Positions 8,549 through 36,805 of a stretch of DNA of 64,000 nt are shown one piece after another. The stretch lies in assembly GCF_003019035.1 (NCBI RefSeq), contig NZ_CP027447.1; one strand, written 5' to 3'. Positions within the stretch are counted from its first letter, which is position 1, and each line of letters opens with the position of its first letter. The notes below the pieces were generated by a model. It ran no database searches, was not told the origin of the DNA, and worked only from the letters and a program-made list of their open reading frames with translations. The translations under genes and the position numbers were made by a program. The stretch comes from Escherichia coli (GTDB lineage Bacteria > Pseudomonadota > Gammaproteobacteria > Enterobacterales > Enterobacteriaceae).

Positions 8549-9601
8549 ATGAAAAATACTGTAAAAATAAACAGTGTTGATTTAATCAACGCTGATTGCC
8601 TGCATTTTATTCAGTCCCTGCCTGATGATTCCATTGACCTGATTGTTACCGATCCGCCTTACTTCAAGGTGAAACCTAACGGTTGGGACAATCAGTGGAA
8701 AGGGGACGAAGATTACCTTAAGTGGCTGGACCACTGTCTGGCCCAGTTCTGGCGGGTGTTAAAACCTGCCGGAAGCCTTTACCTGTTCTGTGGGCATCGC
8801 CTGGCATCTGATATTGAGATCATGATGCGTGAACGTTTCAACGTGCTTAACCATATCATCTGGGCGAAGCCGTCCGGACGTTGGAATGGGTGTAATAAAG
8901 AAAGTCTGCGCGCATATTTTCCTGCCACAGAGCGCGTTCTGTTTGCTGAACATTACCAGGGGCCATATCGCGGCAAAAGTGACGGCTATGCGGCAAAAGA
9001 AAGGGAACTCAAACAGCACATAATGGCACCGCTGATATCGTATTTCAGGGATGCTCGTGCCGAACTGGGTATAACGGCAAAACAAATTGCCGAAGCCACA
9101 GGTAAGAAAAATATGGTTTCCCACTGGTTTGGTGCCAGTCAGTGGCAGTTGCCGAATGAGGCTGACTATCGGAAGTTACAGGCACTGTTTTCCCGTATAG
9201 CGGCAGAGAAGTTTCAGGAACAACAACTGGAACAACCACACCACCAGCTGGTGGCATCTTATGATTCACTGAATCGCAAATATTCTGAATTGCTGGATGA
9301 GTTTAAATCTCTCCGGCGCTATTTCTCCGTATCAGTCTCCGTGCCTTATACCGATGTCTGGACGCATAAGCCCGTTCAGTTCTACCCGGGTAAACATCCG
9401 TGCGAGAAACCGGCGGATATGCTCCGGCAAATAATCAATGCCAGTAGTCGACCTGGTGATCTGGTTGCTGATTTCTTTATGGGATCCGGTTCCACAATAA
9501 AAGCAGCAATGGCGCTGGGGCGTCGGGCGTTAGGTGTTGAACTTGAGTCAGAGCGGTTTAATCAGACGGTGAAAGAGGTAAGTGAACTGGTGGGGAAATA
9601 A
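8549..9601 (+). CDS. DNA methyltransferase (N6-adenine/N4-cytosine, beta-class)
   Basis: 350 aa; catalytic DPPY motif (IVTDPPYF) near the N-terminus and AdoMet-binding FxGxG (DFFMGSGST) near the C-terminus. Confidence 0.85.
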   Translation: MKNTVKINSVDLINADCLHFIQSLPDDSIDLIVTDPPYFKVKPNGWDNQWKGDEDYLKWLDHCLAQFWRVLKPAGSLYLFCGHRLASDIEIMMRERFNVLNHIIWAKPSGRWNGCNKESLRAYFPATERVLFAEHYQGPYRGKSDGYAAKERELKQHIMAPLISYFRDARAELGITAKQIAEATGKKNMVSHWFGASQWQLPNEADYRKLQALFSRIAAEKFQEQQLEQPHHQLVASYDSLNRKYSELLDEFKSLRRYFSVSVSVPYTDVWTHKPVQFYPGKHPCEKPADMLRQIINASSRPGDLVADFFMGSGSTIKAAMALGRRALGVELESERFNQTVKEVSELVGK

Positions 9602-29512: not shown

Positions 29513-29953
29513 ATGAATTACATATATTCCGCGACTACAAACTCTTTCTATCCGCTGGAGATGAAAGAGGATTACACTCAAGCTGACTCATGGCCAGATG
29601 ATGCTGTTGAAGTTGATGAGCAAGTGTATATTGCGTTTTCCGGATTACCGCCGAAAGGAAAAATCCGTATCGCTGGAGAAAATGGTTTTCCTGCATGGTC
29701 TGAAATTCCACCGCCAACACATGAGGAACAGATTGCTGCAGCCGAACAGGAAAAGCAGCAACTGATTAATCAGGCCAACGATTATATGAACAGTAAACAA
29801 TGGCCTGGTAAAGCGGCTATTGGTCGTCTGAAAGGTGAGGAACTGGCGCAATATAATTTGTGGCTGGATTATCTGGACGCACTGGAACTGGTCGATACTT
29901 CCGGTGCGCCAGATATTGAATGGCCTACGCCTCCGGCAGTTCAGGCCAGATGA
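29513..29953 (+). CDS. Tail fibre assembly protein (Tfa)
   Basis: 146 aa; C-terminal ELVDTSGAPDIEWPTPP resembles the conserved Tfa C-terminus. Confidence 0.75.
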   Translation: MNYIYSATTNSFYPLEMKEDYTQADSWPDDAVEVDEQVYIAFSGLPPKGKIRIAGENGFPAWSEIPPPTHEEQIAAAEQEKQQLINQANDYMNSKQWPGKAAIGRLKGEELAQYNLWLDYLDALELVDTSGAPDIEWPTPPAVQAR

Positions 29954-30514
29954 CATCCGGCGCGGTGCTGGTATCTGTTGCCGTCACCGCGTCAATGTAA
30001 TCCAGCACGGCGTTTAGTCGGGTGGTTTCTGTTTGCGTCAGCTTCCGTCCGGCCTGCAATTTCAGTTGAATAAGACTAATGGACGCCATTGCAGCATTAA
30101 TCAGCGACTGGCGCTGTGTTTCTGCCGCTTCTACTGCAGCACCGTGCTGTGCCTCAGTATCTGTCACCCATTTTTCCCATCCATTTATCGTATGGCGTTA
30201 ACGGTGAAAGCGTGACATAACCGTCTTTGATGGCACCGATATAATCCACTGTAACGGCAGCGCCATTTTCGGTTGAGTAAACAGTCTCATGGCGATGGTC
30301 TTCTTCATGGTGCCATCCTTCCCGTAAATACTGCCACTTTCCCCGAAATGTTTTCGCCCGGGTCAATATAAGTGGAACAAGCGGGCATACTTACACCAGT
30401 ATTAATATATTCATCAGACCAACCCGTATATTCATACGTTACTGTATCATAATAAAAACAACGCATATCACCCGGTACTGTAGCCAGCCCATTTTCATCA
30501 AAAACAGGTTTCAT
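29925..30514 (-). pseudogene. Alternative tail fibre assembly gene (tfa') in the invertible segment, disrupted by two frameshifts
   Basis: Three overlapping minus-strand frames (30514..30305, 30366..30154, 30167..29925) carry the N-terminal (FDENG), middle (EDHRHETVY...YDKWMG) and C-terminal (TDTSTAPDVIWPELP) parts of a Tfa-like protein. Confidence 0.55.
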
Positions 30515-30722
30515 TATTTAGCCCTCACCAGAAAGTTAAATGCGATGTTACGTGGCCTGACGGCAATAAAATTCACACCATCACCCACTGAATTACTGGT
30601 GTAATGGTATCGAGAGAAACCCGGCTCGTGTGCTGATATTCCATCGTGATTAGCAATCGAATGGCCGGAGCCCTCTGGATAATTACCTCCAAATTGCGAT
30701 AAAGATGTTGCTGCCTGCCAGC

Positions 30723-30958
30723 TTAATAATGCTCGCCACTATCCACCCCGCACCCATCATCCCAGATACGAATGAAATCACCCCGTGCGTCAGGTAATAC
30801 CAGCGACGGAAACACTTTCGCCAGCACAGGGTAATCAGTGGCAGAAAATTTCGCTCCGTTGAACTTCAAAAACACCATACCGGACCAGCTGTTGATTACG
30901 GTATTTGGCATTGCAGCGGAGGGCCAGAAGAACGGAACTCCAATAGCCGGAGCACCTT
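30723..30958 (-). CDS. Alternative tail-fibre variable C-terminal segment (Sv'), possibly truncated
   Basis: Minus-strand frame whose N-terminus crosses the right crossover site with the same LGLGE junction residues as the plus-strand fibre gene; ends ~200 nt before tfa'. Confidence 0.45.
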
Positions 30959-30968
30959 CTCCCAAACC
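30949..30968. repeat. Invertase crossover site, right (inverted copy)
   Basis: CTTCTCCCAAACCAACGTTT, inverted repeat of the left site; ~70 bp upstream of pin. Confidence 0.7.
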
Positions 30969-31036
30969 AACGTTTATGAAAATGCAGAAATAACGAGCAA
31001 ATGGCATCATTCCTGCTTTTGTCAGGGAGATCTACC

Positions 31037-31591
31037 ATGCTTATTGGCTATGTACGTGTGTCAACAAATGACCAGAACACAGATCTACAACGTAATGCGC
31101 TGAACTGTGCAGGATGCGAGCTGATTTTTGAAGACAAGATAAGCGGTACAAAGTCCGAAAGGCCGGGACTGAAAAAACTGCTCAGGACATTATCGGCAGG
31201 TGACACTCTGGTTGTCTGGAAGCTGGATCGGCTAGGGCGTAGTATGCGGCATCTGGTCATTCTGGTTGAGGAGTTGCGCGAACGTGGCGTTAATTTTCGC
31301 AGCCTGACGGATGCTATTGATACCAGCACACCGATGGGGCGTTTTTTCTTTCATGTGATGGGTGCCCTGGCTGAAATGGAACGAGAACTGATTGTTGAAC
31401 GAACAAAAGCTGGACTGGAAGCTGCTCGCGCACAGGGACGAATTGGTGGACGTCGTCCCAAACTTACACCAGAACAATGGGCGCAGGCCGGGCGATTAAT
31501 TGCATCAGGCGTTCCTCGCCAGAAGGTGGCGATCATCTATGATGTTGGTATATCGACACTGTATAAGAAGTTTCCGGTCGGAGATAAATGA
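31037..31591 (+). CDS. pin: Site-specific DNA invertase Pin (serine recombinase, Hin/Gin/Pin family)
   Basis: ~184 aa from MLIGYVRVSTNDQ; near-identical in pattern to e14 Pin (catalytic Ser in YVRVST; C-terminal HTH). Confidence 0.9.
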   Translation: MLIGYVRVSTNDQNTDLQRNALNCAGCELIFEDKISGTKSERPGLKKLLRTLSAGDTLVVWKLDRLGRSMRHLVILVEELRERGVNFRSLTDAIDTSTPMGRFFFHVMGALAEMERELIVERTKAGLEAARAQGRIGGRRPKLTPEQWAQAGRLIASGVPRQKVAIIYDVGISTLYKKFPVGDK

Positions 31592-31629
31592 AACCGTAGC
31601 ACGTCGTATGCAAGATCGTGCTGCGGTTT
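31591..31629. repeat. Hairpin repeat copy A (AAACCGTAGCACG-n13-CGTGCTGCGGTTT)
   Basis: 13-bp inverted repeat with one mismatch, directly after the pin stop; core shared with copies at 32609..32720 and 37170..37270. Confidence 0.6.
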
Positions 31630-31648
31630 ATGCTTATCACTTAAAGAC

Positions 31649-32518
<870 letters not shown>

Positions 32519-32608
32519 CTAATCCTTTGAATTTACATAGTAAAAAAGATACTTTTCCTCATAGTGTGAGCTAATTTTATGTTTCGTTTGATGATCGGAC
32601 CGGTCTCA

Positions 32609-32720
32609 AAAACCGCAGGCACGTTGTATGCAAGAACGTGCTGTGGCTGGCTGGTGAACTTCCAATAGTGCGAATATTGAATGATTTCTATCTGTTATAG
32701 ATTTTACCGTATTTCGGCAT
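32609..32720. repeat. Repeat copy B (~110 bp) of a dispersed element
   Basis: Shares the core CCGCAGGCACGTTGTATGCAAGAACGTGCTG and the downstream GGCTGGTGAACTTCCAATAGTGCGAATATTGAATGATTTC with copy C (~70% identity by eye). Confidence 0.55.
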
Positions 32721-32981
32721 GAATGAAACTGAATATCCTCCCACCGATTCTCCATGACTTTACGCCACTGTCTCTAGGGCTGCTATGTGCCAGAGGCGGA
32801 CGTTGTTAAAATAGAAAATATCCCAACCTTGTATGAGTCGTGCAATAATTTCGAACTTTATACAAAGCTTTGGTTGTAAAGGTGTATAACCACAAGTGAC
32901 ATTAATCACATTTGTAAAGGCAAAATGCAACAAACTGAATTAGTTAATTGCGTAAATTTGAAGTTATGTTAAGGTGGTGAT

Positions 32982-33114
32982 GGTTTATGGGCAGATTTTG
33001 GGTCGCGTTTCGCGATCAGTGAAAAAAATGTCCGATAGGATTGCCTTTCAGGATCTCATGTTCCTCGCATTTCTTAAGGTTCTTGTCAAGTTTGCGTAAG
33101 AGTGCCCATAAACC
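32982..33114 (+). ncRNA. Candidate retron msr/msd non-coding RNA flanked by inverted repeats a1/a2
   Basis: 12-bp perfect inverted repeats GGTTTATGGGCA (32982..32993) and TGCCCATAAACC (33103..33114) bracket 109 nt; a G follows a1; small hairpin TCGCG-TTT-CGCGA at 33003..33015; ends 20 bp before the RT start. Confidence 0.4.
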
Positions 33115-33133
33115 CTTTTAGAGGCGATCTAAA

Positions 33134-34969
33134 GTGAAACGACTACAATCATTAAAAGAAGCAAAAACAAAACCAGACTTGGCTAAGCTATTAGGAATCA
33201 AACCTTCAGCGTTAACATACTGCCTATATGTATTAAAACCTGAAAATCAATACACACAGTTTAAGATACCAAAAAAAAATGGCGGCGAACGGATAATAAG
33301 TGCACCTAACGGAATATTAAAGACGATACAGTCATCCTTATCAAGACTGCTTCTAGATTGCTTAGACGAAATAGTTTGCATTAAGTTTCCAGACTCAGAG
33401 TTAGCAAGGCAGAAAGCAAAAAACTCAAAAATATTAAAGTTAAAATGTTCCAACTCAGAAATCAAACAACCCTCACTGTCTCATGGATTTGAAAGAAAGC
33501 GTTCAATTATTACAAATGCAATGATGCACTTGGGGAAAAAATATGTTTTTAATATAGACTTGGATAATTTTTTCGGCAGTTTTAACTTTGGTAGAGTCCG
33601 AGGTTTTTTCATAAAAAATAGAAACTTTGCACTCGATCCGGAAATCGCAACTGTAATTGCTAAAATTGCGTGCTACAACAATGAACTACCCCAAGGCAGC
33701 CCATGCTCCCCAGTAATCACTAATCTAATCACTCACTCGTTAGACATTAAACTGGCAGCGATTGCATCAAGAAACTCATCCACTTTTACAAGATATGCTG
33801 ATGATATTACATTCTCTACGAGGAAGGGGGAGTTTCCTTCTGCTATAGCAAAAAATCAAAATGGTAAATATATCGTTAGTAAGAAAATTAGGGGCGAGAT
33901 AACTCGCTCAGGTTTTATAATTAATGATGGGAAGACAAGAAATCAGTATAAAGACTCGAGGCAAGATGTAACAGGCTTAGTGGTTAATAAAAAGCCAAAC
34001 ACGAAAAAAGAATATTGGAGGCTTGTGCGTGCGCAATGTGACCATTTATTTAAACATGGTGAGTTCTTAGAGGTGATTGACGGCAAGGAAATAAAGGGGA
34101 ATGTTAATACCCTTGCAGGCAAACTTAACTTCATAGACCAAGTTGACCACTATAATAGATTGCGTCAAGGCGAAAAATTAAATCCAAAATATCACTTAAA
34201 AAAAGATGCCAATAAAAATGGCCATGCCAAAAAAAGGCGTTACTTACATAGTTCTAGAGAAAAAACGTTTAGTGAGTTTCTCTTCTATCGTTTATTTTAT
34301 GGCAATGAATTACCAACAATTCTTACGGAAGGTAAAACTGACAATATTTATCTGAAGGCAGCAATACATAAGTTAGCCTCATCATTCCCTAATTTGGCGG
34401 TCGCTGAAAGTCCAGGGCTCTCTTATAAGCCACGGACTAAATTTGTTAACTACAATGAGCGGACAAAATATTTACTTGAACTTTATGGTGGTGCTGATTA
34501 TTTAAAGGATTTTGTTATTCATTATAAACAACACTTTAATCGTTATAAGGCTCCCAAACCATCTAATCCAGTAATTATACTTGTTGATAATGATAGCGGA
34601 CCAAAAGATCTGATTAATTACGTTAGTAAAGTTGATAATATTGGTATTTTCCCCACAGGTGTTCCAGATATCCGCGCCTCTGAGTTTGTACATATTTTTT
34701 GTAATCTTTATTTAGTGCTTACCCCTCAAGTTAAGGGATATACAGGAACTGATATAGAGCATTTTTTTAAAGATGCAGATCGACTTAGACCACATAAAGG
34801 TAAGTTTTTCAATACAGTCTCTAAGCGTGATCATGATAATGATTTGAGCAAGGAATCTTTCGCAACTCATATTGTTCATGCCCACAAGCATGAAATTGAT
34901 TTTAGTGGATTTACAAGCCTGTTAGAACGGTTAGTAAAAGTCATAAATCACTTTGACACTGTTAAGTAA
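33134..34969 (+). CDS. Retron-type reverse transcriptase fused to a C-terminal Toprim-like domain
   Basis: 611 aa (GTG start). RT motifs: IPKKNGGER, NAMMH (retron NAxxH), FNIDLDNFF (A), LPQGSPCSPVITNL (B), YADD (C), VTGLVVN (retron VTG); core resembles retron Ec86 RT as recalled. C-terminus carries acidic motifs ILTEGKTD and IILVDND. Confidence 0.8.
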   Translation: MKRLQSLKEAKTKPDLAKLLGIKPSALTYCLYVLKPENQYTQFKIPKKNGGERIISAPNGILKTIQSSLSRLLLDCLDEIVCIKFPDSELARQKAKNSKILKLKCSNSEIKQPSLSHGFERKRSIITNAMMHLGKKYVFNIDLDNFFGSFNFGRVRGFFIKNRNFALDPEIATVIAKIACYNNELPQGSPCSPVITNLITHSLDIKLAAIASRNSSTFTRYADDITFSTRKGEFPSAIAKNQNGKYIVSKKIRGEITRSGFIINDGKTRNQYKDSRQDVTGLVVNKKPNTKKEYWRLVRAQCDHLFKHGEFLEVIDGKEIKGNVNTLAGKLNFIDQVDHYNRLRQGEKLNPKYHLKKDANKNGHAKKRRYLHSSREKTFSEFLFYRLFYGNELPTILTEGKTDNIYLKAAIHKLASSFPNLAVAESPGLSYKPRTKFVNYNERTKYLLELYGGADYLKDFVIHYKQHFNRYKAPKPSNPVIILVDNDSGPKDLINYVSKVDNIGIFPTGVPDIRASEFVHIFCNLYLVLTPQVKGYTGTDIEHFFKDADRLRPHKGKFFNTVSKRDHDNDLSKESFATHIVHAHKHEIDFSGFTSLLERLVKVINHFDTVK

Positions 34970-35343: not shown

Positions 35344-35941
35344 ATTTAAATCAATAAGTTATCTCACATTTAAGTAAACTACGTTCTCCTCTTGTGCCTT
35401 TGATTTTGCTCGCGTGCGCGGTGAAATGCCTGACTGAAAGGTGAGCATATCGACGAACCATTTCGAGAGTTTCCCATCTGCTCATTTTTAAGTGCAAGCA
35501 GGAAAACACCGGACTAAACCAATCAGCTGTTCGAAAATGGCAAGCGGATTAATATGCCATGGCGGGGCAGCTTTGAGCCGCACGCATGGGGTGTGGCAAG
35601 CCTGATGGATTTTGCTGTGCCTGTGGTGGCGTGTTTGCTGGTTTGGCTGTTGGTTAAACGCGAAAGTCATAATGCCAGGGGAATACCGCAGGGTGTTCAG
35701 GTTTTGCATAAAAAAGCCCACCATTAAGGTGGGCAAAAGGAATGATTTATATTCTCTGAGAGAAACATTACATTTCTCCTTGTCACTTCTAACATAAAAA
35801 TATGGAGAAATAATGGAGCTTATATTAATTGGCGATTAGGTAACCATGTGGTTATACAAAACAATACAGTTCTTTACATTTGCCTTGTTTTATGAATACT
35901 CCTGAAGAGGTGTACAACATAATTAAACAAACAGGGTAAAT

Positions 35942-36556: not shown

Positions 36557-36805
36557 TGCATTGAATGATAAAAATGGCGCAAATACAGCGCCATTTTTAT
36601 AGGTTAAAAACATTGTTTTTAACTTTCTGATGGCAGATAGCCAGTGAGTACATCGCGCTACTTCAGGATGCTGTAGATCCGGAGAACACTATAGAGGAAG
36701 AGGCATTGTTGCTGGCAGATGGAAGAAGTTTCGGGTTTTGTTATCCCTGAAAAACGAAGCCCCGCGATTATAGCTGGCGGGGCAGTGCAATTAATTATTG
36801 CATAT

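Follow-up and report, generated by a model that had tools for sequence, protein, structure and literature searches.

A Pin-type tail-fibre switch in an Escherichia coli prophage, with a silent arm probably crippled by five single-nucleotide deletions

In phages Mu and P1, a serine invertase acts on two sites of ~26 bp, one of which lies inside a fibre gene, and opposed cassettes encoding fibre C-termini and assembly functions give alternative host ranges. The G segment of Mu (gin; S-U versus S'-U') and the C segment of P1 (cin) follow the same logic as the locus described here, which was found in a window of E. coli DNA, meaning the whole stretch of 64,000 nucleotides that was analysed. The baseplate genes in the window are similar to those of Mu (gp44-48). 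However, the fibre, at 213 or 248 aa, is much shorter than in Mu and P1, the invertase belongs to the Pin type, and only one arm is functional, whereas both arms are functional in Mu and P1.

The e14 element of E. coli K-12 carries a P segment (stfP-tfaP / tfaE-stfE, pinE) with the same gene order as the window, located directly 3' of ymfQ. The e14 repeats are TTGGTTTGGGAGAAGG and CCTTCTCCCAAACCAA, and the P segment spans 1797 bp (PMC12529663). A K-12 analogue of the leader on the pinE side has been described, as has StfE2, which is made by P-segment inversion in K-12 and blocks adsorption of phage T2 (PMC12529663). Relative to e14, the window encodes PinE with 95.1% and YmfQ with 98.5% identity and has the same inverted-repeat core, TTGGTTTGGGAGAAG; measured core to core, its segment is 1828 bp long, as compared to 1797 bp in K-12. 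In both e14 and the window, a leader open reading frame (ORF) adjoins pinE, and both orientations occur in nature. The variable parts in the window, however, are just 40-62% identical to those of K-12, and the arm facing pinE has five frameshifts, whereas K-12 tfaE is intact.

The first ~35.4 kb of the window constitute a complete temperate prophage of the e14/SfV-like kind in the E. coli chromosome, with head genes, a Mu-type tail and lysis genes, whereas e14 is a 15-kb remnant. Annotated relatives of this prophage have a cI/Cro-like region, HK97-type head genes, a Mu-type contractile tail and baseplate genes gp44-48. On the 3' side of the baseplate genes, the gene order is ymfQ, an stfP-like gene and tfa, then tfa' and a fibre C-terminus on the minus strand, then pinE. 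The features of the locus, in window positions, are as follows.

28850-29491, plus strand: stfP-like tail-fibre gene, 213 aa, intact and in the expressed orientation; residues 1-101 are constant
29127-29152: pix-L, the left crossover site, inside stfP at the constant/variable junction; core TT at 29139-29140
29513-29953, plus strand: tfa, tail-fibre assembly chaperone, 146 aa, intact; Pfam Caudo_TAP, E=2e-38
29925-30514, minus strand: tfa' of the silent set, split over three frames by four 1-nt deletions; intact form 197 aa
30514-30956, minus strand: variable C-terminal part of the alternative fibre, stfE-like, frameshifted; premature stop at 30723-30725
30957-30982: pix-R, the right crossover site, adjoining pinE; core AA at 30969-30970
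30976-31010, minus strand: short leader with its own ATG at 31010, outside the invertible segment; part of ORF 30723-31010
31037-31591, plus strand: pinE, serine DNA invertase, 184 aa, intact; Pfam Resolvase (E=9e-52) and HTH_7

Elsewhere in the prophage, positions 8549-9601 encode an N6/N4 DNA methyltransferase; more than 10,000 blocks of the searched collection contain the same gene, and related prophages have a Dam-like methylase nearby. At 35398-35781, the paoABCD operon and a LysR fragment that are present in NZ_AP027886.1 are missing from the window, and the prophage end joins yagU almost directly; this junction is common to the sister isolates of the clone. Beyond yagU, immediately outside the prophage, positions 36562-36763 give a full-length IS009 match in Rfam (RF02111, 191.7 bits).

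The cargo 3' of pinE distinguishes the two elements, as K-12 e14 carries mcrA whereas the window carries genes for a GIY-YIG protein and an Ec67-type reverse transcriptase. In the window, this cargo occupies 31649-34969, directly 3' of pinE; the GIY-YIG protein, encoded on the minus strand, is LEM-3-like, and the reverse transcriptase (611 aa, 33134-34969) is assigned to the retron Ec67 family in the annotation of relatives. No Rfam match for a retron non-coding RNA was obtained at the gathering threshold in the 660-bp gap (32474-33133) upstream of the reverse transcriptase. Relatives have Avs2, GmrSD, or a DUF3037/HipA-like pair in the same slot, which looks like a hotspot for defence cargo.

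PinE matched a PHROG family of DNA invertases (E=6e-97) and contains the motif GYVRVSTNDQ. The pix-L sequence equals the first e14 repeat and pix-R contains the second, as in K-12; the e14 repeat strings, whole or at 15 of 16 bases, are present at 29140-29154 and 30955-30970, and the inverted-repeat arms (29134-29158 and 30951-30975) are 88% complementary. Among flipped sister isolates, the left inversion breakpoint falls between 29138 and 29141, and the cores lie at 29139-29140 and 30969-30970. The two cassettes are opposed: the plus-strand set contains Gp53-like_C and Caudo_TAP domains, and the minus-strand set contains a collar-type C-terminus and Caudo_TAP that are readable only across frames. 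The leader reads into whichever cassette faces pinE, giving an stfE-type or StfE2-type ORF; in flipped relatives, an ORF of 129-131 aa composed of leader and Gp53-like_C is found at the leader position. Thus, the locus has what characterises Pin/Gin/Cin/Hin-type switches (an adjoining invertase, two inverted sites of ~26 bp, opposed cassettes and the occurrence of both orientations), except that its minus-strand arm has five frameshifts where both arms would be functional. It is a crippled member of the Pin-type switch family and not a different system; the system itself is already known.

In the expressed set, the variable C-terminus of the stfP-like protein is a Gp53-like_C domain (Pfam PF21882, E=1.6e-14). 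The gene is annotated as intact in near-identical relatives, its position matches that of ycfK/stfP in e14, and the adjacent tfa is identical in the sister isolates. The convergent 3' ends of tfa and tfa' overlap by 29 nt (29925-29953), and the conserved C-terminal regions of the two genes are 83% complementary to each other as an imperfect inverted repeat (29863-29880 and 29989-30006). Between the convergent tfa genes, terminator predictions did not rise above chance, and counts of promoters and terminators across 28700-31700 did not exceed those in shuffled sequences.

A first-pass annotation of the window had described tfa' as divided among three frames that encode the N-terminal, middle and C-terminal parts of a Tfa protein, and this description agrees with our translations. 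ORF 30305-30514 encodes residues 1-65 of the 197-aa Tfa', followed by RMAP and a stop; ORF 30154-30366 encodes residues 67-112; and ORF 29925-30167 encodes residues 115-197. We placed the underlying changes by alignment to NZ_AP027886.1, the closest complete genome (99.7% identical), and to other relatives. Compared with intact relatives, this alignment identified exactly five 1-nt deletions, each of which shortens a run of three or four C on the plus strand.

30176-30182: first deletion pair; CCC at 30176-30178 was CCCC and CC at 30181-30182 was CCC; Tfa' codons D113-G114, net -2 nt
30317-30323: second deletion pair; CC at 30317-30318 was CCC and CCC at 30321-30323 was CCCC; Tfa' codons K66-G67, net -2 nt
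30736-30737: fifth deletion; CC was CCC; fibre frame shifted after residue G175 of the hybrid fibre

The annotation had counted two frameshifts in tfa'. Two places are indeed disrupted; however, the members of each pair lie 5-6 nt apart with a net loss of 2 nt, so each supposed frameshift is a pair of 1-nt deletions, four in all. It had also noted that the alternative fibre frame stops ~200 nt before tfa'. We found that the stop at 30723-30725, caused by the fifth frameshift, is 208 nt ahead of the tfa' ATG (30514); the remaining 73 codons of the fibre are readable in another frame, whose end stop overlaps that ATG. The alignment to intact relatives therefore bears out the suspicion that the genes of the alternate orientation are degenerate.

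A full-length match to the arm is present in 540 E. coli genomes; all 40 of the matches listed span 5 nt more than the query, and most of these 40 are annotated with two tail-fibre assembly genes. Comparison with relatives from 11.9 to 30.1 kb identified no other coding indels. We rejected programmed frameshifting or recoding on the grounds that the shift is not conserved and all listed relatives have single continuous frames that are 5 nt longer. A phase-variable homopolymer tract was likewise rejected, as the runs are just 3-4 nt long and do not vary in length among the 40 listed relatives or in any sister isolate.

Sister isolates provided both a reference for the intact arm and a record of inversion. 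The isolate assembly GCA_026088675.1 (L038), which has the orientation of the window, matches positions 19925-40513 with 0 mismatches and with five gaps as the sole differences; both of its silent-arm genes are intact, and its chromosomal junction is the same as that of the window. In GCA_025991315.1 (L018), the segment is flipped. After reversal of the segment, the only differences between L018 and the window over 6.7 kb are the five gaps and positions 29138 and 30971; these two mismatches stem from the choice of cut and put the crossover at the core dinucleotides. The Tfa' of L018 is intact at 197 aa and has the same D16/T24 residues. L040 is likewise flipped, whereas L039 is oriented as L038 and the window; in all four of these isolates, the five gaps are the sole difference from the window. 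Comparison of the clone at ~9 kb and at 49.5 kb recovered just relatives with 96-98% identity.

We predicted the fibre that the intact segment would encode after inversion by joining constant residues 1-101, at GLGE, to the repaired C-terminus. This 248-aa hybrid, which matches tail-fibre and tail-collar PHROGs, was found exactly in 14 contigs; all 14 encode an intact 197-aa Tfa' after it and have the Gp53-like cassette inverted beside pinE. Two other E. coli sequences annotated with one tfa (H43 and H64) were set aside, since their cassette is intact and in the expressed orientation. In several short-read isolate assemblies of the same clone (L042-L045), the segment (~29155-30954) is a separate contig of ~1.8 kb that ends at the repeats, which suggests mixed orientation in the sequenced cultures.

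Because otherwise identical sisters occur in both orientations, the switch is active in the clone. The pinE sequence is identical to that of sister isolates in either orientation, and since pinE and both sites match the flipping sisters base for base, the DNA in the window should still flip. The flipped allele with deletions, searched for as a 178-aa product and as a 137-aa version with an alternative start, is not on record, and inversion is thus unobserved in this exact lineage; this negative result is weak because the Logan contigs are short. The deletion-bearing contigs all run straight through the repeats in a single orientation.

As a check, the first-pass annotation had proposed resequencing to see whether continuous frames would be restored. 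Sequencing of independent origin, in the form of Logan contigs from at least 12 named SRA runs, leaves the frames broken. The 69-, 80- and 94-aa ORF products that are specific to the frameshifts occur in 13-15 Logan contigs, with the 94-aa ORF that results from the fifth deletion in 15. We fetched 12 of these contigs, and 11 show 100% identity to the window from end to end, at each covered deletion site as well. In the twelfth (L035), divergence is restricted to the invertase gene, and the deletion at 30736 is retained. The supporting runs belong to two accession series; the assembled contigs are shorter than 2.4 kb, and the sequencing platform is unstated. An allele-specific 40-mer was absent from viral_contigs and from JGI metagenome contigs, and a deletion-spanning 33-mer was absent from GTDB representative genomes. 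We conclude from these assembled sequences that the five deletions are probably present in the DNA and are not the error of one assembly.

The contig L035 (SRR27538941), which matches 30386-31545, combines the frameshifted fibre arm with an invertase gene that has a different 3' part (193 aa), and a Mu Com-like zinc-ribbon gene comes next. This combination reflects either recombination in a second Mu-like phage or the formation of a graph chimera via conserved invertase sequence.

A sequencing or assembly artefact would require that the five missing C's are systematic homopolymer undercalls over intact DNA, produced by flow-based or nanopore chemistry or by polishing across a region of mixed orientation. 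The five differences are all 1-nt homopolymer losses, which is the classic type of error, and outside the window the deletions occur solely in the Logan contigs mentioned above, of unstated platform and less than 2.4 kb, with none in an NCBI assembly or long contig. A source for the window was likewise not recovered from the viral, JGI-metagenome or GTDB-representative collections or from RefSeq complete E. coli genomes. Against this, the deletions are reproduced in contigs from at least 12 named runs of two accession series at 100% identity to the window; there are zero other indels in 20.6 kb relative to a sister isolate; and the deletions are confined to 560 bp, with no difference in the other 800 bp of the invertible segment. 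Only 5 of the 14 C runs in 575 bp are affected, whereas the A5 and T5 runs within this stretch, although longer, are intact. A context-specific miscall was rejected because the context CATCCCA, shortened at 30179, is unchanged at ~30762. In addition, six contigs share the end coordinate 30108, which we read as graph branch points in accurate reads and not as noise. We consider an artefact very unlikely.

In Mu, P2, lambda and T4, assembly and receptor binding depend on the fibre tip and on fibre assembly proteins. In the flipped state, the fibre of the window is predicted to contain constant residues 1-101 and 74 of the 147 variable residues, that is, 175 native residues followed by EHY, or 178 aa as compared to 248 aa. 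The lost residues (176-248) fall within the match to a tail-collar module (phrog_6459 "tail collar protein", residues 172-248). The flipped-state Tfa' is predicted to stop after residue 65 of 197, leaving a 69-aa stub. Since the truncated fibre and the Tfa' stub would both lack parts needed in Mu, P2, lambda and T4, flipped cells should release fibre-defective particles, and loss of function in the flipped state is predicted from the sequence. The StfP2-type product (constant part plus alternative C-terminus) would thereby be truncated in this strain. The same inversion would fuse the leader to the intact Gp53-like C-terminus, and the deletions leave that product unaffected. This fusion would join a leader of the same type as in K-12 StfE2 to a Gp53-like C-terminus.

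The annotation had further proposed that host range would be locked to the current orientation. In functional terms this appears to hold, given the truncated products; in physical terms it does not, as pinE and the sites are identical to those of sisters that occur in both orientations.

The explanation that we favour, and consider highly probable, is that this locus is the silent arm of a Pin-type tail-fibre switch (an e14/SfV-like P segment) crippled by five real deletions. Late transcription would enter from stfP, and PinE would exchange DNA at the two 26-bp sites, so that the constant N-terminus is joined either to the Gp53-like C-terminus and tfa, as at present, or to the collar-type C-terminus and tfa'. 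Five single-base deletions in short G:C runs would have inactivated both genes of the second set and left the invertase and sites untouched. The flipped state would then yield a fibre without its last 73 residues and a 69-aa chaperone stub, giving fibre-defective or non-adsorbing particles, and a switch between two host ranges would become an on/off switch. The deletions would have arisen very recently within one clone, as a localised cluster and not through slow decay.

The clustering of the deletions is the sole surprising element of the locus, and ordinary decay does not explain the pattern. All five -1 deletions fall within 560 bp and in G:C runs, with zero substitutions in the 20.6 kb compared with L038. 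The silent arm contains 24 of the 234 G:C runs in 12.2 kb, and all five deletions fall in this subset ((24/234)^5 ~ 1e-5); 0 of 33 A:T runs in the silent arm are affected. Both of the close C-run doublets in the span lost a base in both members (10/2002 = 0.005, calculated by hand), whereas nine other doublets elsewhere in the 12.2 kb, the majority of them in late genes, remain intact. Runs of the minus-strand GGGA type were affected in four of five cases versus one of nine for other runs (46/2002 = 0.023, calculated by hand); four of the five deletions are thus at GGGA or GGGGA, and all five are on one strand, 215-800 bp from pix-R.

Further sources for such a pattern were considered and rejected. 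For templated mutation or gene conversion, the three deletion contexts have no second copy in the window, even with up to 3 mismatches allowed, and similarity between the mutated tract and the retron/GIY-YIG cargo is not above chance. For a diversity-generating retroelement, the changes are deletions of C and not substitutions of A, and the tract has no second copy, despite the presence of a reverse transcriptase 2.2 kb away.

Slow pseudogenisation, in which an unexpressed arm under relaxed selection gains slippage deletions one by one, is consistent with lesions limited to the arm left unread by the late operon in the present orientation. Short homopolymer runs, such as those affected here, are the usual sites of spontaneous -1 slippage. 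However, mutation-accumulation studies in E. coli give a ratio of spontaneous indels to substitutions of roughly 1:10. At this ratio, five indels would be accompanied by tens of substitutions, whereas the 1-kb arm and the surrounding 20.6 kb have none relative to a sister isolate. Moreover, sister isolates flip, so the arm is periodically exposed to selection. No intermediate allele was found, as every carrier contig has each deletion that it covers; a Tfa' product with the first deletion pair alone is not on record. A homology search with intact Tfa' returned just clusters at 90% identity, and the near-identical outliers (P0001 and P0002) carry unrelated changes. We judge gradual decay to be a very improbable origin indeed.

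Positive selection in the lysogen offers another origin for the same lesions. The arm would be read from the leader on the pinE side, its StfE-like and TfaE-like products would harm the host, for example by helping superinfecting T-even phages, and knock-outs would be favoured. The ORF that begins with the leader's own ATG (31010) continues into the arm, and in K-12, survival of infection by T2 was abolished by TfaE production, and StfE proved ineffective or deleterious (PMC12529663). Selection of this kind would account for lesions confined to the arm, with neutral late genes spared. On the other hand, one knock-out would suffice, which leaves five unexplained; promoter-like matches in the region are no commoner than in shuffled sequences; expression of the arm in the prophage is putative; and the arm is matched at full length in 540 E. 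coli genomes, with the 40 listed all 5 nt longer. This origin seems unlikely to us.

It is also possible, although improbable, that the five deletions are the footprint of a single localised, strand-coordinated mutational episode at the invertase-side arm. This reading is allowed by the zero substitutions, the placement on one strand near pix-R, the GGGA/GGGGA bias and the doublets affected in both members. One possible route would be error-prone repair synthesis after abortive double-strand cleavage by Pin at pix-R; an unrecognised process linked to the adjacent reverse-transcriptase/GIY-YIG cargo is another. Among the explanations considered, there was no demonstrated process that yields five -1 deletions in 560 bp without a substitution. 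For mutation research, the cluster is a sharp and testable anomaly, which would matter only upon confirmation in raw reads and with a genome-wide comparison to establish whether it is unique.

For annotation, the locus indicates that frameshifts on the silent side of an invertible segment can be genuine, and annotators should refrain from "correcting" them. About 30% of K-12 cells carry the segment in inverted form (PMC12529663). A prediction for the strain studied here is that a sizeable fraction of its induced particles would be fibre-defective. With crippling of the silent arm as the favoured explanation, the locus would represent a natural case in which a two-state host-range switch has become an on/off switch while the recombinase is still active, and the intact sisters in both orientations serve as controls. 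If the deletions did arise in a single episode, invertible phage switches could lose an arm in one step and not by slow decay.
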